Shown one piece after another: positions 19,704 to 52,345 of a DNA stretch of 64,000 nucleotides. Both the position numbers and the translations under genes were made by a program. The notes under the pieces were generated by a model. That model was not told where the DNA came from and made no database searches. It saw nothing but the letters and a program-made list of their open reading frames with translations. Source of the stretch: a virus. Its lineage: Duplodnaviria > Caudoviricetes. The DNA lies in the IMG/VR virus record IMGVR_UViG_3300021958_000041, positions 21,197 to 85,196 of that record, one strand, 5' to 3'. The number at the start of each line of letters is the position of its first letter. Positions within the stretch are counted from its first letter, which is position 1.

Positions 19704-22700
19704 TGGGTGTAAAATTATCATGCGTTGGTGAAAGAAACCAGACTTACACCGTCACAGCAAGTGAAACCTATTCATTCTCCTCGCATTTCGCTGAGACAAG
19801 AAACATAGACGATTGTGTTGCACAGGTGGCTAATAACTTTCTCGGCAATCCATATACATTTTGTTCATGTACAGACAAGCAAACTACTGATAATGCTGCG
19901 ACCTATAAGAGTTTCCTCACTGTGAAAGCAACTAGTACTCTTGGTGGACATCCTGACGAACATGCCGTAAGTGTTGAGAGTGAAGATAAGTATTCCGATG
20001 GATTTGGAGACCGATTTCATTCTCCGAGAAATACTGCAAACGGTTGTAAAACGTTTAAATACGAGTTAGAAGGTGGTGGTGCAGGTTCAACCACAGAATT
20101 ATGGAACATAAAAGGTCATCATAGTACAGACAAGTGGTCTGACTCATGGCATACTGTTAGTGAAGATAGTAATGGATACACGAAAGGGAAGGAAGTAAAT
20201 AATTATCCTCCTTATATTACTTATTATCCTGCCCACGAAGATAATTTCGTTCCTTGGTTTTCTAAAAGAATTACATCAAAAGCGGAAACTTTCACAGTTC
20301 CAGAAATTATATATAGCACAGATTTATCAGGAAAAGTTTCAGACTTAAGTACATTTTTAAATACATCAACAAGGCCATTCACTACATTTAATCGAATATT
20401 AACGCATGAAGAAATGTATACGAGCGTTAGTAATCATTATACAGAAATCAGTGATGATGCCCCTCGCATCTATTACAATGATACCCGAACTTTCAAGACA
20501 GCTAGATTCCCCTTCGAAAATATCCTGACCACAATAATATGTGATGATAAAGATTTTGTCATATTTAATACAGCCGCGGCTTCTTATGCAGGAAATCACT
20601 CTTTCACTAAAGCTAAAACAGTTGTAATAAATGAAATACCGCCAAGTCAGAATTGGCTTGGTAGGGCTTACCATGTACCAAATAAATCTAAAACTCTATC
20701 TTGGTCAACTTTTGGTAAAGATTACAGGTTGCCGTATAATTTTGGCGAAACTGAATACCCATTATTTAAAAAGAAAACTTTAAATGTTAAAAATTGGGAT
20801 GTTGGGAAATGGAGTGGTGCAAATTTTAAGCGCTATCAAATAATTGAACCTGTTAATCAAAAAGCCAATCTCAGTTATCTTTATCAGGAATCACAAGAAA
20901 TAGTAGAAGCTCCTTATACATTTTCTTCCGATTGGCATGCTAGATTTAGTTTGTATAAAACTAAACAAGTTACAGTTAATTGGTTAATCCCATCCCCAGC
21001 CAAAATAAATATAGGAAATTCATATGGAGCTATACAATATCCACAAGTCGAAAACCATCTTTCCTACACAAAACTTAACATAGAAGGCTGGACACCCCTT
21101 GGTGGAGGATTCAGAAATCAATCTGCGACCTATCCAGTAAATGCTGGATACACGGCATTTGAGGTAGGAAGTAAAACTACATACACAGAACTTGGAGACA
21201 AATCCAGGCGCAGCTCATTTAAGCATGGTGTTAGCGCTTCACCATCTAGGGATTGGGCGTATTATCAACCAAACGAAGTTACTGTTCTAGGTGACATTTA
21301 CTTACAAGCTACTAATATAGGTAAAGTCTTGCCTAGGAAATTTGGAAGTAATTTCATTCAAGGTTCCAATAGGGGTACAAATGCGGATTATTTTAAGGCA
21401 GTGCAAGGAGAGCGATGGCCCGTACATAATATATTTGGTGACACTAGGGTAGATAATAACATAGGAGCGCAAGCCTATAGGGACAATCAGGCTTTAGCTA
21501 TTGGAGACATTGATGTTAGTGTCCGAAATTACAAATTTGTGACAACACGCACCAAATATCTCACAATTGCTGGCAGGAGAAAAAGGACTACAGAAACCCA
21601 TCATTTACAAAGTTTTGGTTTACCAGTAGCTAATTTCACTAACCCCGAAACTGCTAAGGAATTTTGGAGTTTTTCATATACCGATATTGTCAAGACATCC
21701 GACCCTGAGGACTCCAATAAAACTAGTTATGTAAGTAGTCATAATAGAATAATTGAACATAATTTAGGACTTGATTACAATAGACCCCCAAATGCATCAA
21801 CTTATGCAATAACTGATTATGACGACTCAAATTGGAAAGAAGCCAAAAAACCTAAAGCTATAGAAGTATTAGATAGCTCTTGGTATGGCCCGTTAACACA
21901 AAATGGTGCATACCATTCTGGAAGCGGTGTAAATTCCCACGGCCATGAATCATTTAATATAGCTGATTATAGACATATTGGTAATATAAATAATTACGAT
22001 TGGAGGTATCATTCAACAAATTCTTCATCATGGCTAGAAGTTGATGATGTAGACAGAGGTGCGTATCATGGTCTAAAAGTTGCAGATTATCACTATAAAG
22101 GTATTCTTGATGCCCCCCGTGAATACCTCAAATCCCTTAAATTACAGAGAGTCGATTGGTGGGGAGGCGGAATTATTAATTATCATGCACCACCAGACCA
22201 CGGAAATTCTTTCTACTACAATAAATGGCATGATGATTATAATTATAGATTTAACGCAAAAGATGCTCTTCTAGTAGCACCTATTGGAGTTGGTGGAATT
22301 GGTTACGATGGAAGCCCTTTTTCTGGATATATAGGTAATTATTATAAAAGTGACTTAGATATTACATCTTATGTAGAAAACTCCAATGGTTCATTTGATT
22401 CCTCAAAAACAAAACTCTCCTTAGGCTTACATACGTATATTGGTACAGCCCAAACTTTTTTCGCAGCAAATCCATTTAGTTCTATAAATGAACCACTAGG
22501 CAGTACAAAATTAGGAGCTGGTACACCTTTTTCTGTAATTTATAACCCTTTCCAGAAAAAAAGAAATACCTTTACAGATTCTAATATATTATCTAATAAT
22601 CCTGAGTATTTTATAGAAGGAATGAGATTTCAAGACGGAGTAATAACAAAAAGAGGAAAGCCAGCCCAAACAGAAACAAAGGAGAATGAAGACGGAGAAA

Positions 22701-45326: not shown

Positions 45327-45730
45327 AAGTATTTGTTTACGGAACACTAAAAAGAGGTGAAGGTAATAATGGATTATTACTAGGGTGCGGTGCAGATTTT
45401 CTTGTGGATGCAAGAACTAAAGAACCTAGAAAACTAGTAGTTAATGGTCTGCCATACTTAAACCGCCCAGAAATCGAAGGTGGAGTTCATGTCAAGGGTG
45501 AGATATGGGAAGTACCAGACGCAATGATTTGGAGGCTTGACCAACTTGAGGGTCACCCTGATTGGTATAAGCGTCAAGAAGATGAGTTTTTAGATGAAAG
45601 CGGAGGAGTTTGGAAAGCTTGGGTGTATTACATTCAATCCACTCAAGAAGGAAGAGCGGTAGAAAACTATGGAGAACCTAGCTACTCCATAGAAAATGAT
45701 GTTTTCTCGCCAAATTATACTGATTACTAA
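45323..45730 (+). CDS. gamma-glutamylcyclotransferase (AIG2-like)
   Basis: VFVYGTLKRG, V.GE.W.V, LDQLEGHP..Y.R, AWVY. Confidence 0.88.
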   Translation: MKVFVYGTLKRGEGNNGLLLGCGADFLVDARTKEPRKLVVNGLPYLNRPEIEGGVHVKGEIWEVPDAMIWRLDQLEGHPDWYKRQEDEFLDESGGVWKAWVYYIQSTQEGRAVENYGEPSYSIENDVFSPNYTDY

Positions 45731-47559
45731 TGAGAAAATGTTCATTGGAAGCAGGAAAGCTTTCTCTGTCATTTTCTTATTCTCCTGATTTGGTTAATGG
45801 CATTAAGGAATTACCTCCTTATTGCAGAAAGTGGAACCCAAAAGAAAAAAAGTGGATTTTAAATTTACAAGTTTCTAATCCAAAGTTTGTAGCACATCAG
45901 CTACACATTTTCCTAGACGAAAATCAGTTCACTATTGAGGAAAATGCTAAAGCTGAAATTGCAAAATATTTACCTAAAGAATTGATGGTAAGTGAGGACG
46001 ATGAGTCATTAAAAGACTCATTGAGTGTTGATGCCGAAATTGACTTAGATGTCATGCTTGAGCCAAGACCATTTCAAAAAGCGGGTGTGAGCTATTTATT
46101 GAAACACCCTAAGAGTTTCTTGGCTGACGAAATGGGTTTAGGTAAAACTGGTCAAGCAATTAGCGTAATGCATCACACGCAAGCTTTCCCATGCCTAATT
46201 GCCTGCCCAGCATCTTTGCAAATAAACTGGAAGAGAGAGATTTTTAAATGGGTAGGAGACTTAACAAGCGTATCTACTACCCCCAATAGAGATAGCGAAT
46301 GGAATATAATTCCATATACGCAATTAAAGAAATATAAAGATGTTATAGATACTATTCCATATAAAGGATTAGTTTGTGATGAGAGCCACTACCTAAAGAG
46401 TGGTAAAGCACAAAGAACAAAGCAAGTTAAGAAGCTTGCTAAGAGAATACCCAGAGTCCACTTATTAAGCGGTACACCTATTGTTAATAGACCCTCAGAG
46501 CTAATATCCCAACTGGAAATCATTGGAATGCTTGAGGAGCTTGGAGGATGGAAGAATTTCGTATCTGATTATTGCGCAGCTTATAGGGATAAATTTGGTC
46601 TTAATATATCAGGAGCAAAAAACTTAAAAACTTTAAATACAGAATTAAGAAAGCGTTGTTATATAAGGCGTATGAAAAAAGATGTCTTAAAGGAGTTACC
46701 TGACAAGCAAAGAATAATAGTTGATGTAGAAATAGCAGACTGGAAAGAATATAATAAATCTGAATCCATAGTTTTAGCAAAAATAGAAGCGTTATCTGAG
46801 GAGTATGAGCAAAATGCTTACAATGTTTATACTGTTATAGATGAATATAATCTTGCAGACGCTAAACAATATGTAATTAAGGAATTAAATAAACCATCGG
46901 ACGATTATTTATTAATAATAAACAATTGTAAAAGCATCAAAGAGCTTAAGCAAAAGTCCACAGAATTATTTATGCGTAAGTCTGACAATGTAGTCAACGC
47001 GCAGGCTCTAATGTTGCTCAATGAATTAAAGAAAGTTTGCGCCCAACAAAAAATGGAATCTGTTCTTGAATGGGTAGAAAGCTTTATGGAAAATGACCAA
47101 AAATTAGTGCTTTTTGCCGACCATATTGAGATTCAAAAAATGCTTATTAATAGATTAGCTAAACATAAACCTTGTTCAGTCCTAGGAGAGATGCAAGTAG
47201 AGGAAAGACAGCAGAATGTAGATTTATTTCAAAATGACGACTCCCGCAAAATAATAGTGTGTTCACTACAGGCAGCAGGAGTTGGACTTACACTCACTGC
47301 ATCAAGTAATGTCGCCTTCGTTCAGTGCGGATGGACTCCTGCGCTACATGACCAAGCAGAAGACAGAACACATAGAATTGGCCAAGAGAACGCAGTGAGT
47401 TGCTTTTATTTATTATGCCCTAAAAGTATAGATGAAGATATATGGAATATAATAGAAGAGAAGAGAAAAGTTGTTAATAAAGCAAGTGATGGAAGATTCT
47501 CAGGAAAATCCGACATAGCGAGTTTAGTTAACAAAGTTAAGAATAGAGTTAATCAATAA
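45730..47559 (+). CDS. SNF2-family helicase (HARP/SMARCAL1-like)
   Basis: ADEMGLGKT, CDESH, LSGTPI, RRMKKDVL, AAGVGLTLT, QAEDRTHRIGQ; N-terminal HARP-like segment. Confidence 0.92.
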   Translation: MRKCSLEAGKLSLSFSYSPDLVNGIKELPPYCRKWNPKEKKWILNLQVSNPKFVAHQLHIFLDENQFTIEENAKAEIAKYLPKELMVSEDDESLKDSLSVDAEIDLDVMLEPRPFQKAGVSYLLKHPKSFLADEMGLGKTGQAISVMHHTQAFPCLIACPASLQINWKREIFKWVGDLTSVSTTPNRDSEWNIIPYTQLKKYKDVIDTIPYKGLVCDESHYLKSGKAQRTKQVKKLAKRIPRVHLLSGTPIVNRPSELISQLEIIGMLEELGGWKNFVSDYCAAYRDKFGLNISGAKNLKTLNTELRKRCYIRRMKKDVLKELPDKQRIIVDVEIADWKEYNKSESIVLAKIEALSEEYEQNAYNVYTVIDEYNLADAKQYVIKELNKPSDDYLLIINNCKSIKELKQKSTELFMRKSDNVVNAQALMLLNELKKVCAQQKMESVLEWVESFMENDQKLVLFADHIEIQKMLINRLAKHKPCSVLGEMQVEERQQNVDLFQNDDSRKIIVCSLQAAGVGLTLTASSNVAFVQCGWTPALHDQAEDRTHRIGQENAVSCFYLLCPKSIDEDIWNIIEEKRKVVNKASDGRFSGKSDIASLVNKVKNRVNQ

Positions 47560-47599
47560 AATGTATTGACATTATTATAAAATAGGGGAATATATAAAT

Positions 47600-47785
47600 A
47601 TGAATGAATGTGAGAAATTAGTAAAAATATTAGATAACGAAAAAGTAATTGAATGCTTAGATTTAAGAGATGGAGATGGTAAGCCTGTGAATGACCCGCA
47701 ATTAGTTGAATTTTTAAGCAATATTTATAATCAAGCTGTCGATAACTGCAAAAAAGCAATTGAAGAATATTATCAAAATGAATAA
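47600..47785 (+). CDS. hypothetical protein
   Basis: 61-aa ORF with A-rich leader. Confidence 0.5.
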   Translation: MNECEKLVKILDNEKVIECLDLRDGDGKPVNDPQLVEFLSNIYNQAVDNCKKAIEEYYQNE

Positions 47786-48377
47786 AAATGAGCCAAGAAT
47801 AACAAAGATGAAAATAAGTGATATTTTTGTCGATGAAGAATCTAACGCAAGAGATTTAGATGATGAAAGATTCAAGAAGCTTAGAGAAAGTTTAAATACT
47901 TTTGGCAACTTGCAGCCTATAGTTGTTAATGAAGCCACAAATAAGCTAGTTGGTGGTCATCAAAGATTAAAGATTTTATCAGAAACCTCAGATGAGGTTG
48001 ATGTATGGCTTGTGAACTTAGATGAATTTCAGGAACAATCAGCTAGTTTAGCCTTAAATAACGAAGTTGGAGAATTTGATGATAATGCTCTTAGTGAAAT
48101 AATTAAAGGATTTGATTCAGAGCAAGTCTACTTAACAGGATTTGACGACAATTTAATAGAGCAGATAACTACTGAATTAGATGATAGCTTAGAGCAAGGA
48201 ACAGAAGAGCTTTCAGAAAAGATGGAGATATATAAAATCACATTAGATTTTGAGAGTTTAGAGAGTAAATTTAGATTTGAGTCATTTATAGAGCAATGTA
48301 AGTTGCATGCTGGTCACAATAGACCAATAACTGACCACATGTTTGAATTAATAGATAACGATAAAAATAACGAATAA
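47778..48377 (+). CDS. ParB/Srx-like N-terminal domain protein
   Basis: NAR, FGNLQPIVVN, GGHQRL, ALNN..GEFD. Confidence 0.82.
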   Translation: MNKNEPRITKMKISDIFVDEESNARDLDDERFKKLRESLNTFGNLQPIVVNEATNKLVGGHQRLKILSETSDEVDVWLVNLDEFQEQSASLALNNEVGEFDDNALSEIIKGFDSEQVYLTGFDDNLIEQITTELDDSLEQGTEELSEKMEIYKITLDFESLESKFRFESFIEQCKLHAGHNRPITDHMFELIDNDKNNE

Positions 48378-48378
48378 A

Positions 48379-48558
48379 ATGAATATAGACTCAATAGCAT
48401 ACGAACACTCAATTGCTTACTACTCAAGTGATTGGTGTTATTATAATAAAGAGCTTTCTGCCATAGAGCATGGAGCAATACTCGCAGGAGCAAAGCTTCG
48501 AGCAAAAGATAGAGAGAAGCGTAAGAATAGAATTAAAAGAAAGCCAAAAGCGAAATGA
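48379..48558 (+). CDS. small hypothetical protein (59 aa, absent from ORF track)
   Basis: MNIDSIAYEHS...KRKPKAK; fills gap and overlaps the methyltransferase start by ATGA. Confidence 0.5.
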   Translation: MNIDSIAYEHSIAYYSSDWCYYNKELSAIEHGAILAGAKLRAKDREKRKNRIKRKPKAK

Positions 48559-50192
48559 GTAAACCAACATTCATTAGTTTATTTGCGGGAGTTGGAGGTC
48601 TAGATACTGGCTTTGAGAGAGCAGGATGGAAATGTGTAGCAAATGTAGAACTAGATAAAAACGCTGCAGGCGTACTTAGATACCATAGACCAGACATACC
48701 AGTTTTTACGGATATAACTAAAGTAGAACCAGAAGATTTACCAGATGCTGATGCCATCCTATACGGCTTCCCTTGCCAAGATGTCAGTGTTGCGGGTCAA
48801 AGAAAAGGGATGAACAACGAAACTAGAACAGGATTATTTTATCATGCAGCAAGACTTATTCACGGAAAAAGAAATAAAGGACTTAGGTTTGCCTTGGCTG
48901 AGAATGTCTTCGGCCTCCTCAGCGCAGATGATTCTCTTGCACTTCCTAGGGTCATCAGAGAGCTTACCGACATCGGGAGTAATGCAGTCGGATGGACGGT
49001 ATTGGACAGCCAACACGTGGGATGGTGTTCCTCCGAAAAGAGGGTCAAGTCCGTCCCCCAGCGACGTAGACGAGTCTTTATACTCTCGACTTTCGGAGAT
49101 ATTGGAGGAGAATCCATCGCAGAAATATTTGCTCTCAGCGAACGCATGTCAGGGAATATTAGACAGAACGGAAAGAAGAGGAAAGTTGGACAAGCTCCCC
49201 CCGATGCTACGAAAAGCACTGGAGTGGATGTCTACAACGGACAAGAAACTGGAGAAACCGCAGCCACCCTCACAACAGCCGCAGGAATAAGTAATGCAAG
49301 TGGTCCAAAGATTATGGGAGTAGATTTCTATAATAATTCTTTAAATGATGAAACATCCCAGACTTTATCATCAGCAGCAGCAGATAAAAATCACACAGGT
49401 GGAGTTCTAGAAGTAAAAAACTCAGAAGCCATCAGCTTGCAAGGAAGTATGATTGGAAGAGACCACAAGAATGGCCCCCAAGGAGACGGAGTAAATGAAG
49501 ATATTTGCTTCACATTGACATCAGCAGACCAACACGGAGTTGTACATCCAATACAGAATGCAACCCGTGGAAAAGACCAAAATGGTTTAGGAGTCGGAGA
49601 GAAAGAAGACCCTATGTATACATTAGACCACGGAAGTCAGCATGCGATTGCATTTGAGCCTCGCTCTCAAGATGGAATACCGAGAGTTACAGGAAACCCC
49701 GATGAATGCGTAAGCCCTACATTAAATACAATGTCTGGTGGTCAAAGACAGCCAGCAATTGCATGGAGTCAAAGAGGTAGAGATGGAGAGACAATGATTG
49801 AAGATGAAAAAGATGAAGTTAGTCCAGCTTTAAGAACTGCCCCTCAAAGTCAAATGGGAGTTTGTTCGTTGATTGCAGATACAACACCAAAAGGAAAAGA
49901 AGACATAAGTATGGCGTTGAGAGCAACCAAAGAAATGCTCACAAGTACACCTGAATTTGCAATACGTAGACTTACTCCAATTGAATGTGAGAGACTTCAA
50001 GGATTTGATGACAACCATACCGAATACAAGTATGAATGTGAATCAATAGATAATAAATGGGAGATTAAAGAAAAAGACGGAAAACCCATAGAGAAACGAC
50101 AAGCAGATGGCCCTAGATATAAGCAAATGGGAAATGCCGTAAGTGTTACTACTGCTCAATGGATAGCGGAAGGAATGATAAAGCATACATGA
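48555..50192 (+). CDS. C5 cytosine DNA methyltransferase
   Basis: Motif I FAGVGG, IV GFPCQD, VI ENV, VIII QRRRR, IX RRLTPIECERLQGF, X YKQMGNAV; long variable region. Confidence 0.95.
   Translation: MSKPTFISLFAGVGGLDTGFERAGWKCVANVELDKNAAGVLRYHRPDIPVFTDITKVEPEDLPDADAILYGFPCQDVSVAGQRKGMNNETRTGLFYHAARLIHGKRNKGLRFALAENVFGLLSADDSLALPRVIRELTDIGSNAVGWTVLDSQHVGWCSSEKRVKSVPQRRRRVFILSTFGDIGGESIAEIFALSERMSGNIRQNGKKRKVGQAPPDATKSTGVDVYNGQETGETAATLTTAAGISNASGPKIMGVDFYNNSLNDETSQTLSSAAADKNHTGGVLEVKNSEAISLQGSMIGRDHKNGPQGDGVNEDICFTLTSADQHGVVHPIQNATRGKDQNGLGVGEKEDPMYTLDHGSQHAIAFEPRSQDGIPRVTGNPDECVSPTLNTMSGGQRQPAIAWSQRGRDGETMIEDEKDEVSPALRTAPQSQMGVCSLIADTTPKGKEDISMALRATKEMLTSTPEFAIRRLTPIECERLQGFDDNHTEYKYECESIDNKWEIKEKDGKPIEKRQADGPRYKQMGNAVSVTTAQWIAEGMIKHT
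48844..49290 (+). CDS. overlapping +1-frame ORF inside the methyltransferase (M.EcoHK31I beta-like, lacking motif IX)
   Basis: 148 stop-free codons; peptide LSEILEENPSQKYLLSANACQGILDRTERRGK..LPPMLRKALE. Confidence 0.62.
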   Translation: MQQDLFTEKEIKDLGLPWLRMSSASSAQMILLHFLGSSESLPTSGVMQSDGRYWTANTWDGVPPKRGSSPSPSDVDESLYSRLSEILEENPSQKYLLSANACQGILDRTERRGKLDKLPPMLRKALEWMSTTDKKLEKPQPPSQQPQE

Positions 50193-50845
50193 AGTACGAC
50201 AAATTGCTTAAAGATAATTGGAACTTCTTCGCTGAACGAGATGCAATTAAAGCAATTATTACTAATTTCACAGGAACAAAAAAAGATTTTTTTCAACGTG
50301 GAATAGATGAAGTAAACCACATAATAGAGAAAAAAGTATCAATTGATACCATAAATAAATATGAGAAAAGTTTCGCTGTTGATTTTGGTTGCGGTATTGG
50401 GAGATTAACAAAGCCTCTAGCGAAGCATTTCGATGTTGCAGTAGGAATTGATATATCAGAAAAAATGCTAGAAGTAGCGAGACATGAAGCAAGCGCGAGA
50501 AATGCTCAATACTTGGAGTGTCAAAATTCAGATAAACTTCCCATTGCAAGCAATTGCGTAGATTTTATATTAAGCCTCCAAGTTCTGCAACATATACCAA
50601 GAGTTTATAAAATTAATATATTTAAAGAGTTTTACAGAATGTTAAGAAAAAAAGGTAAAGTATATTTCGAGCATCCATATTCAGGTAAAGAAGCAATTCA
50701 TGATAACCATGTGATGCATATGGATGTTTGGGGAATTAATAAATTAGGAGACACATTGACAGATATTGGATTCAAAGTTTTGAATATAGAGTCGCTTGGA
50801 GACAAAGATTTATGGCCAAGAGCCGCCTACACATTAGTAAAATGA
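50189..50845 (+). CDS. class I SAM-dependent methyltransferase
   Basis: VDFGCGIGRL, GIDISEKML, VLQHIP; start taken at the ATGA overlap. Confidence 0.85.
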   Translation: MKYDKLLKDNWNFFAERDAIKAIITNFTGTKKDFFQRGIDEVNHIIEKKVSIDTINKYEKSFAVDFGCGIGRLTKPLAKHFDVAVGIDISEKMLEVARHEASARNAQYLECQNSDKLPIASNCVDFILSLQVLQHIPRVYKINIFKEFYRMLRKKGKVYFEHPYSGKEAIHDNHVMHMDVWGINKLGDTLTDIGFKVLNIESLGDKDLWPRAAYTLVK

Positions 50846-51027
50846 CAAAAACAGAAAAAGAAATGCATATGGAAATCGCTGAATTACAGCGAAAGATACA
50901 AGATTTGAAAGTAGTCCTTGATACAGCACAAGCAGCAATAAGAAGAGCAGAAAGCGTACTTGAGGGAGATAATAAGAGACATGTAATTAATCAATCCGCA
51001 AAATGGGTATTAAAATATAAACTATAA
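50842..51027 (+). CDS. small coiled-coil hypothetical protein
   Basis: ATGA-coupled start; heptad pattern. Confidence 0.5.
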   Translation: MTKTEKEMHMEIAELQRKIQDLKVVLDTAQAAIRRAESVLEGDNKRHVINQSAKWVLKYKL

Positions 51028-51028
51028 A

Positions 51029-51295
51029 ATGAAAAACAGAATAGCTAACTACTTTTGGAGTACAGATTATCCAGAAGTTAACAAAACAACTCACGAACCA
51101 GTAGAGTGGAAAACAATGAATAATCCATTTATCGCAGATGAAGGTTATTTTAAGACGGAGAAGAAGAAAGCAGACAATAAGTCAAAGCTTGAATTAAGTA
51201 AGCCGAGATTAATTTTAGGAATTTATATCATAACTTGTACGTTATATTGTACATATTCTATTTTTAGCTACTTACTAAGCCTGATATTTTCGTAA
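51029..51295 (+). CDS. hypothetical protein with C-terminal TM
   Basis: LILGIYIITCTLYCTYSIFSYLLSLIFS. Confidence 0.55.
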   Translation: MKNRIANYFWSTDYPEVNKTTHEPVEWKTMNNPFIADEGYFKTEKKKADNKSKLELSKPRLILGIYIITCTLYCTYSIFSYLLSLIFS

Positions 51296-51789
51296 TGTAT
51301 AACGAAACTGGAAACGAAACAAAAGTATCCACGCATGATTTAGTGGAAGAAGTATCAAAGAATCTAGATAAGAAAGATTGGAATGGTTGCGTAGGATGTG
51401 CAGATTGCTGTACAATGTTTGCTGTAACCGCACCACTAGCCAAGCAAATGGAAGAGTTTGCCACAGCACATTTTGGTCAGCCTACAGATAAGATACAAAT
51501 AAAGAATCATCATATATGTTCTAAACTCGACCCGAAAACGAGAAAGTGTACTATATATGACTCAAGACCAGAGATATGCAGAACATTTTTTTGCGATGCA
51601 TCAAAAACAAGAGCGAAGACGCATAAATTAATAACCGAGGAAATAGAGAAAAATGACAACAAGACTGACCCAAGAACTATCGACATCTACCCATACCTAT
51701 CCAAGATTAGAAAGGGTCAGGGTCTCTCAGGTCAAGGAAGCGGAGTGGAATCCGAGAAAAGTAACAAGAAAATCTCTAAATCTACTTGA
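51295..51789 (+). CDS. YkgJ family Cys-cluster protein
   Basis: CVGCADCC, C..L....KCTIYDSRPEICRTFFC. Confidence 0.85.
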   Translation: MYNETGNETKVSTHDLVEEVSKNLDKKDWNGCVGCADCCTMFAVTAPLAKQMEEFATAHFGQPTDKIQIKNHHICSKLDPKTRKCTIYDSRPEICRTFFCDASKTRAKTHKLITEEIEKNDNKTDPRTIDIYPYLSKIRKGQGLSGQGSGVESEKSNKKISKST

Positions 51790-52345
51790 GAAAAGCTACG
51801 AAGAATTTGGCAACCTCCAGCCAATAGTAATAAATAAGAGAACAAATAGATTACTAGCAGGCCACCAAAGATTAAAGATACTTAGAAGAAAGAAAGTAGT
51901 AGAAACAGATGCGTGGGTAGTAGACCAAAGTATTGAGAGTGAGAAAGTCATAGCAATTGCACTTAATAATCACGCAGCAGATTTTGATTTAAAAGGGCTT
52001 GGTTCAATCTTGGCTGACTTGCAAGCCATGAAAGATGACCTAGACCATACCCTATTTACCGAAGAGCAAATAGACCGCATTGTACAACAATCATTGCCAC
52101 AATTAGTTGACATAGACCTAGATAACAATAATACTAATAGTACAGATATTGAAAATAGCGAACCTGAGAGCAAATCCACACCTGACACTAACAAAGACGT
52201 AAGCAATGTATTCAAATACGACCTATACTTCGAGAACGCTACAGATAAGTTAAAGTTCCTAGCATATATAAAGAAGCAAGAAAGAAAACGTACAGACATA
52301 AAGCTCAACGGAGAAAATTTACTAATAGCATTTAAAATACCATGA
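51653..52345 (+). CDS. second ParB/Srx-like domain protein
   Basis: WNPRK, FGNLQPIVIN, AGHQRL, ALNN. Confidence 0.82.
   Translation: MTTRLTQELSTSTHTYPRLERVRVSQVKEAEWNPRKVTRKSLNLLEKSYEEFGNLQPIVINKRTNRLLAGHQRLKILRRKKVVETDAWVVDQSIESEKVIAIALNNHAADFDLKGLGSILADLQAMKDDLDHTLFTEEQIDRIVQQSLPQLVDIDLDNNNTNSTDIENSEPESKSTPDTNKDVSNVFKYDLYFENATDKLKFLAYIKKQERKRTDIKLNGENLLIAFKIP

Follow-up and report, generated by a model that had tools for sequence, protein, structure and literature searches.

A conserved reading frame within a phage C5 cytosine methyltransferase gene very probably encodes a second protein, a candidate accessory module of the enzyme

The window considered here is a stretch of 64,000 nucleotides (nt) from a Caudoviricetes virus (positions 21,197 to 85,196 of the IMG/VR record IMGVR_UViG_3300021958_000041); the source record is complete, 85 kb long with terminal repeats, and has no dnaN, the clamp gene, of its own. 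On the plus strand of the window, at 48555..50192, lies a gene for a C5 cytosine DNA methyltransferase (MTase) of 545 amino acids (aa). Wholly within it, at 48844..49290 on the same strand, a second open reading frame (ORF), which we call alt, runs in the +1 frame ((48844-48555) mod 3 = 1) for 148 codons plus a stop from an ATG start. A first-pass annotation made from the sequence alone had proposed that alt is a second protein overprinted on the enzyme and retained for a role of its own, and the ORF indeed exists at that position with the peptide quoted there. We treat it as a very probable overlapping gene on the basis of the ORF listing, a redraw test and its relatives.

The host gene is read in frame 0. 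Its product matches PF00145 with an E-value of 1.4e-48, scoring 166.5 bits against a curated cut-off of 22, and thus belongs to this family. Motifs I (48582-48599), IV (PCQ, 48768-48782), VI (ENV, 48900-48908), VIII (QRRRR, 49059-49073), IX (RRLTPIECERLQGF, 49965-50006) and X (50130-50141) were all located in this single frame on the plus strand, motif IX included, as the first-pass annotation had said. The alt ORF begins in the helix of motif V, spans ENV and QRRRR, and extends 72 codons beyond. Before motif VIII the MTase frame carries a clade-specific insertion of 10 residues (WCSSEKRVKS, 49023..49052), already remarked on in the annotation, across which both frames are open; in three relatives (L005-L007) the MTase is lengthened by about as much at this site.

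The alt product itself divides into three parts. Residues 2-6 (48847..48861) read QQDLF, or QLDLF in the relative L006, and resemble the pentapeptide that binds the beta sliding clamp. Residues 7-76 (48862..49071) lie over MTase motifs V-VIII, are modelled with low confidence by AlphaFold2 (AF2) and are probably disordered. Residues 77-136 (49072..49251), reading LSEILE..KYLLSANACQGILDRTERRGK..LPPMLRKALE, form a predicted three-helix module recognised from the AF2 model and the alignment. The likely translation start is an A/T-rich leader (acaggattattttatc) with the ATG (48822..48846), both identical in the relatives L004-L006. The earlier remark that this leader is like those of other starts also holds, as most gene starts in the window are alike and few have a Shine-Dalgarno sequence.

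The openness of alt is not due to chance, because it was never reproduced when the MTase protein was held fixed and its codons were resampled from the window's or the gene's own usage. Not one of 20,000 such synonymous redraws was stop-free in the +1 frame across these 150 codons, a stretch expected to hold 9-11 stops. When the whole gene was redrawn 3,000 times, the +1 run reached 131 codons at most, against 158 observed. The GC content is 0.50 in the alt ORF, 0.40 in the rest of the MTase gene and 0.37 in the window, and higher local GC brings a greater chance of open frames; according to the redraws, however, composition alone is insufficient. Horizontal transfer as the origin of this GC-rich island was considered and set aside, since the island matches the extent of the overlap and dual-coding constraint accounts for the GC.

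Three close relatives, L004, L005 and L006, were compared. L004, a nanopore assembly in which the frame is broken at scattered points, says nothing about the openness of alt; L005 (83% MTase identity) and L006 (69%) retain the ORF, its ATG and the same leader. Among the window, L005 and L006, MTase third-position differences amount to 0.42-0.51 per codon outside the overlap and to only 0.06-0.14 per codon over the N-terminal half of alt. Over the conserved module, third positions differ at 0.07-0.11, and the rate at first positions, which are the wobble positions of the +1 frame, climbs to 0.20-0.46. At codons whose amino acid is conserved in the MTase, synonymous variation was found in 18 of 98 inside the overlap versus 149 of 240 outside it (Fisher p=1.5e-13). 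The suppression starts about 5 codons upstream of the alt ATG and tapers off past the module; these limits match the start of alt and the end of the module, as expected of a separately initiated ORF with an unconstrained tail. The synonymous-site analysis that the first-pass annotation had suggested thus finds MTase-frame suppression confined to the overlap. Stops in the +1 frame of close relatives, which the annotation had named as evidence against a second protein, are absent from L005 and L006, and 75 loci selected through the MTase frame, described below, keep a long +1 run.

More distant relatives were reached through the alt peptide. A tblastn search with it against phage records returned 69 records, in which the annotated matches fall within C5-MTase or hypothetical-protein genes; a blastn search of the same kind of records with the MTase gene gave no match. 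A pattern scan derived from the alt-peptide alignment identified at least 574 viral contigs. In all 87 loci analysed, the +1 frame holds the motif LS.ILE..KY.LS.KAC.GILRRAERRGK.LP..L..AL, and the KY.LS core of this motif lies 55-73 nt 3' of the QRRRR of motif VIII. Frame conservation was measured in 35 non-redundant loci with identical spacing after motif VIII. There, over codons 30-40 past motif VIII, mean pairwise identity is 0.77 in the +1 frame versus 0.28 in the MTase frame, and nucleotide entropy at MTase codon positions 1, 2 and 3 is 1.44, 0.81 and 0.53, which is the periodicity of the +1 frame. The zone after motif VIII contains 11 stops in +1, where the ORFs end, versus 121 in +2. The 'EILFE' family signature of the MTase frame is largely forced by KY[YF]LS in the other frame.

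Since these loci had been found through the alt peptide, a second sample was drawn by means of MTase-frame motifs only, and yielded 75 loci with a recognisable motif VIII. Their +1 run has a median of 157 codons and a minimum of 109, compared with a median of 30 in +2; even among the 19 loci whose GC is below 45%, the +1 median is 139 codons. The core motif was found in +1 in 68 of the 75, and in frame 0 and +2 in none.

Alt is therefore under purifying selection as a protein, is universal in this MTase clade, and exists in fused and unfused forms, to which we return below. Conservation of the ORF and its ATG, synonymous suppression, +1 periodicity and the higher amino acid conservation of the +1 frame all bear out the proposal of a second protein overprinted on the enzyme, and we put the probability that alt is a real protein-coding overlapping gene at about 0.9. 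That it is no gene at all, being open because of GC composition, MTase motifs read out of frame or RNA structure, is highly improbable. Such an explanation would draw on the local GC of 0.50, on parts of the alt N-terminus that are plainly MTase motifs out of frame, and on antisense frames open for 104-147 codons in the window, L005 and L006; it fails to account for the lower conservation of the MTase frame over the module, for the +1 periodicity, for redraws that are never open, and for an ORF retained across loci of 31% to 67% GC. The antisense frames, which include a 119-aa ORF on the minus strand over the same stretch as alt (window 48860-49219), are highly variable in other relatives and are probably a side effect of high GC and of the constraint on two sense frames.

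The family to which alt belongs is large. Among 1.84 billion representatives the profile matched 5,474 clusters, 4,051 of them at E<=1e-10, and a second database gave at least 3,552 clusters, labelled 'hypothetical protein' or without a name; the single window peptide, used as query in a word-indexed protein search, retrieved 3 proteins only, the profile reaching far more. The hosts of these phages are Bacteroidota-like, Firmicutes, Proteobacteria, Actinobacteria and Verrucomicrobia. In phage P1 (L091, AF234172.1) the ORF lies at 2363-2851, 163 codons from stop to stop, in the +1 frame of the N-terminal C5-MTase domain of the bifunctional gene dmt, and includes the conserved module; P7, RCS47 and SJ46 match too. 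Mycobacteriophage Omega carries alt in gp127. The records of phage P1 (dmt), mycobacteriophages Omega and Phoebus, and Caulobacter phage DMCA hold no annotation of alt, and our literature searches found no description of it.

Several observations concern how far the overlap reaches and how it is annotated. Short MTases of the 'QNRER' type (L124, L138, L141, L164, L169, L172) also have a long +1 ORF, of 109-190 codons (154 codons in L141, at 31% GC), which ends in SLSDILE..VDEKYYLS.. shortly past motif VIII. Judged by these sequences, the overlapping frame may extend well beyond the clade studied. In three cases (L087:3001-3456, L089:3001-3420, L004:4001-4492) public gene calls give alt in place of a longer, intact MTase ORF, and where alt is called instead, the MTase ORF is truncated or uncalled; such a preference of gene callers may account for the thousands of 'hypothetical proteins' in the family. 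Two of these cases in NCBI/ENA (L087, L089) had been candidates for a stand-alone alt outside MTase genes, and both proved to be embedded copies whose MTase ORF had been passed over.

How might alt be expressed? In nearly all cases the alt ORF has an ATG or GTG 0-10 codons past the upstream stop, and lineages that use Shine-Dalgarno sequences show AGGAG or GAGG 5-11 nt upstream of the alt start. The +1 frame is open for 54-149 codons 5' of motif VIII in nearly all loci, and for up to 269 in one. We infer from sequence that alt is translated separately, from its own internal ATG. Programmed +1 frameshifting, by which an N-terminal MTase fragment would be tailed by the module, would have the merit that a +1 shift after motif VIII restores the canonical order, motif VIII being followed by L.DILE..KYYLS, and some annotated coding sequences do place the MTase N-terminus in the frame of the module (L002, L067, P0118, P0030). 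Yet both the long open run 5' of motif VIII and the start codon after a stop would then be needless, no conserved slippery site was seen, and the in-frame cases are explained by poly-G indels, so that we regard frameshifting as very unlikely. In L002 (Faecalibacterium phage FP_Toutatis, ~1950-2000) and L067, the MTase N-terminus with motifs I/IV-VI is in frame with the alt module, and motif VIII onward is in the -1 frame; the change of frame lies within a GGG-coding stretch and is compatible with an indel in poly-G, and this second poly-G tract would sit between ENV and motif VIII. A pseudogene is a further possibility for these two loci, beside slippage and faulty assembly. Three loci overall read the MTase N-terminus in frame with alt, and we take them to be mutations, slippage or assembly errors rather than programmed frameshifting.

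The predicted structure of the product agrees with the partition made above. In an AF2 model built with 45 sequences, the predicted local distance difference test score (pLDDT) is low, 43-70, over residues 1-80, and the N-terminal half, up to about residue 75, is probably disordered according to this model. Helices are predicted at residues 77-89, 99-111 and 120-136, with pLDDT of 88-98 over residues 90-130. The module is the best conserved element of the locus, with 16 invariant columns in 45 sequences, and the MTase frame opposite it is a poorly conserved linker. No Pfam family matches the alt proteins. PHROGs returned weak matches only, to phrog_16143 ('DNA methyltransferase', 139 aa) and phrog_13478, which are probably gene-finder calls of these very ORFs. 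Foldseek and VIA-align found nothing convincing among known folds (best Z 5.1, for a helical hairpin), and the ESM Atlas returned only viral 'hypothetical protein' clusters.

The layout of the enzyme in relatives bears directly on what the module might do. Many profile matches are 300-620 aa long, and those inspected consist of alt at the N-terminus followed in frame by a target recognition domain (TRD) and the C-terminal part of PF00145 with motifs IX-X. In genomes with this fused alt, the MTase frame stops soon past the overlap, and the enzyme is split into an alpha polypeptide that runs to motif VIII and a beta polypeptide made of alt, TRD and motifs IX-X, the two genes overlapping by about 140 codons. 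Alt is embedded as in the window in 67 of the 87 loci and fused in 6, and the other 14 are split otherwise or cut. Because the module is fused to the TRD in relatives, we argue that it is physically part of the enzyme. Among the roles offered by the first-pass annotation, a structural subunit is hence the best fit, the same ORF being fused to TRD and motifs IX-X in some relatives; a regulator fits less well. A regulatory alt, that is, a DNA-binding protein like the C proteins or a timing factor that sets MTase expression or activity, would be in keeping with a small helical module bearing a basic loop (RRAERRGK), and embedding the gene in its target would ensure co-inheritance. But no match to helix-turn-helix or other DNA-binding families was found in Pfam, PDB sequences or the fold search, and fusion to TRD and motifs IX-X is expected of a part of an enzyme rather than of a transcription factor; we consider this role improbable.

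What sets the layout differs between lineages. In a clade of gut phages it is a one-G difference in a G7/G8 tract about 190 nt after motif VIII, which puts TRD and motifs IX-X into the MTase frame or the alt frame (L013/L044/L075/L030 versus L020/L022/L024), and the tract looks, by its sequence, like a slippage-prone switch between fused and split enzyme. In L057 and L080 it is a 70-nt insertion, rather than a G tract, that leads to the split enzyme. No poly-G toggle of the gut-phage type is present in the MTase gene of the window, where the only homopolymer of at least six G/C or at least seven A/T is a C6 tract within the LPP codons of alt (49197..49202, plus strand). One could thus suppose that alt is a frame on stand-by, which matters only as the N-terminus of beta in the split form, its free 148-aa product being idle in the present phage. 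The G7/G8 tract that switches layout among close relatives would suit such a role, as would the two further loci with frameshifts at another poly-G tract. The window, L005 and L006, however, all have the fused-enzyme form with no tract after the module, only the C6 inside it; synonymous suppression is strongest in just this clade, the start region and the N-terminal half included; and the embedded form accounts for 67 of the 87 loci. An idle product therefore seems to us an improbable outcome.

Two further arrangements were seen among these relatives. Many members (P0014, P0050, L002, L087 and many gut-phage loci) are circularly permuted, starting near motif IV with motifs I-III after motif X, and split forms of them put the SAM-binding motifs and the catalytic cysteine on different polypeptides. 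P0127, a fused alt-MTase of 605 aa, has an HNH_3 endonuclease and a winged-helix domain inserted in motif IX, which looks like a mobile insertion in the MTase gene.

The N-terminal motif hints at a possible further function. The consensus for binding to the bacterial beta clamp is QL[SD]LF, from which the QQDLF of the window departs at position 2 only; QLDLF is found in L006, L008 and Omega, QLSLF in L015, L045 and L069, QMSLF in L029, and QLTFW in the proteobacterial type. Of 46 non-redundant alt proteins, 27 have a motif of the form Q.[SDTEN][LIMFVW][FWL] among their first 30 residues, and it occurs once elsewhere, compared with a mean of 0.74 and a maximum of 5 in shuffles of the alt proteins, the counts coming from related and hence not independent sequences. 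It overlies at least four sites of the MTase frame, depending on the subfamily (the motif V helix, before ENV, before PCQ, and further upstream in Omega). Because these positions differ, the motif is not a simple mirror of one MTase motif. We tentatively suggest from the sequence that the N-terminal motif may tether the enzyme to the clamp, although this is rather less probable than not.

The same observations could be turned into a different proposal, namely that alt is a clamp-binding protein independent of MTase catalysis, which might couple something to replication forks or block the host clamp, the MTase gene being a mere carrier. The frequency of the motif relative to shuffles, its occurrence over at least four MTase-frame positions in different subfamilies, and its place at the end of a low-confidence, probably disordered segment, as is usual for clamp-binding motifs, would all fit. 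The invariant part of the family, however, is the C-terminal module and not the clamp-like motif, which is missing from about 40% of the alt proteins, that of P1 included; no stand-alone copy outside MTase genes was seen in the cases examined; and the relatedness of the sequences counted applies here as well. Such an independent protein is unlikely.

The reading we prefer is that alt encodes a trans-acting accessory module of the MTase, to which the sequences lead us to assign a probability of about 0.5. Translated from its own ATG, alt would give a 148-aa product with a disordered N-terminal half and a compact three-helix module (77-136), the same module that forms the N-terminal part of the beta polypeptide in split relatives. 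In the present phage the enzyme is fused in frame 0, and the stretch after motif VIII serves only as a linker with a sequence dictated by the alt frame, so that the module would have to be made separately. It would act in trans as an accessory subunit of the MTase, and its N-terminal motif might tether the enzyme to the sliding clamp.

A number of findings weigh against this accessory role. With all ten motifs in frame 0, the full-length enzyme might do without a helper. The alt start lacks a clear ribosome-binding site in the window, as do most other genes of the phage, and in the literature searched we found no detection of the alt product by ribosome profiling, mass spectrometry or tagged protein. 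Searching PDB sequences with the profile, and with the module by itself, gave matches at chance level only (adenovirus IIIa, E 0.4; a Hen1-type MTase, E 0.4). By hhalign the module falls on residues 289-338 of E. coli Dcm, directly after the Dcm motif VIII, a placement that would suit a part of the enzyme; but with an E-value of 0.03 and a probability of 1.7% the match is weak, and the likeness of the module to the canonical segment after motif VIII is statistically non-significant. The AF2 model of a fused beta form (P0008) is poor, with a pLDDT of 52, and the packing of the module cannot be read from it. At the other end of the protein, much of the alt N-terminus mirrors MTase motifs out of frame (ENVPG, for example, is read as SGKTSPE), and its conservation across distant phages is for this reason partly a by-product of the MTase frame. 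The gaps in the distribution of the clamp-like motif, given above, belong to the same side of the balance.

For the origin of the arrangement, we infer a route from a split gene through a new start to re-fusion. The gene of a canonical MTase would first have been split by a mutation that shifted the frame past motif VIII; the downstream half would then have gained an upstream start in the new frame; and in most lineages a second shift would have re-fused the enzyme through a linker and left the module separate. The conserved part of alt may be the older of the two frames rather than the newer. A bolder version of our reading, in which a clade-wide hidden gene, better conserved than the annotated one and present in P1 dmt as elsewhere, provides a detachable module, with a clamp arm that tethers methylation to the fork as a bacterial counterpart of DNMT1-PCNA and, in some lineages, a poly-G switch by which the module alternates between a free protein and the start of the C-terminal enzyme half, seems to us doubtful as a whole.

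The genes around the MTase (window 45730-52345) are, in order, a SNF2 helicase, a ParB_N protein, a 59-aa ORF and the C5 MTase with alt, followed on the 3' side by a class I S-adenosylmethionine (SAM) methyltransferase, a CxxCxxCC protein and a second ParB_N protein. The order in L004 is similar.

Well-supported cases of long genes that overlap on one strand are few in dsDNA phages and bacteria, and such ORFs are thrown out by annotation pipelines. In this family, every locus examined carries alt, and over some 50 codons the hidden frame is better conserved than the annotated one. The annotation of these MTases should change, and the split or wrong calls made by gene callers are explained. Phage P1 dmt and Omega gp127 offer tractable test systems because both carry the ORF. 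Should the accessory subunit or the clamp tether prove true, it would bear on how phages time and target their self-methylation to evade restriction.

Among known systems, the closest in layout is M.EcoHK31I of E. coli HK31, with which the first-pass annotation had compared the locus. Its beta polypeptide is encoded inside another frame of alpha, works together with the main-frame product (PMC2836561; PMC3404938) and supplies motif IX (PMC2836561). Alpha lacks this motif, and both polypeptides are needed for activity. The comparison is apt as regards the gene layout, as here too a second polypeptide lies wholly within another frame of a C5-MTase gene. It does not extend to the piece of enzyme that is embedded: in the window motif IX is in frame 0, and alt, which ends at 49290, carries instead the three-helix module coded just past motif VIII together with a disordered N-terminus. 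M.AquI is split in the variable region, alpha having motifs I-VIII and beta the distal variable region with motifs IX-X, and complementation between fragments is also possible for monomeric C5 MTases (PMC3404938). M.EcoHK31I, M.AquI and this complementation are precedents for the accessory reading. Relatives with fused alt (P0008, P0014, L020 and others) share this division into alpha and beta, with overlapping genes. The gene of the window, in contrast, is unsplit, a single ORF of 545 aa, the split being confined to relatives (6 of 87 loci plus P0008 and P0014). In these relatives, moreover, the overlap is about 140 codons, and beta starts with an overprinted, probably disordered extension that is not known in M.AquI. 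Since the locus shares the embedded layout of M.EcoHK31I but not its embedded motif IX, and is unsplit where M.AquI is split, we regard it as a variant of these systems and not as a member of either. What had been a curiosity of M.EcoHK31I and M.AquI is thereby widened into a widespread design.

Two other comparisons are instructive. Gene E within gene D of phiX174 is an overprinted gene of a small virus, and part of the products of such genes is predicted to be disordered. Alt resembles them in that a new frame lies over an existing gene, that synonymous change in the host frame is suppressed, and that the product is partly disordered; it differs in belonging to large dsDNA phages, whose genome size is under no evident pressure, and in being tied to one enzyme family across many host phyla. 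DNMT1, for its part, is tethered to PCNA through a PCNA-interacting peptide (PIP) box. If QQDLF were to bind the clamp, a terminal motif on a disordered arm would by analogy link a C5 MTase to the clamp here as well, with the difference that the motif lies on a separate small protein and not on the enzyme itself.

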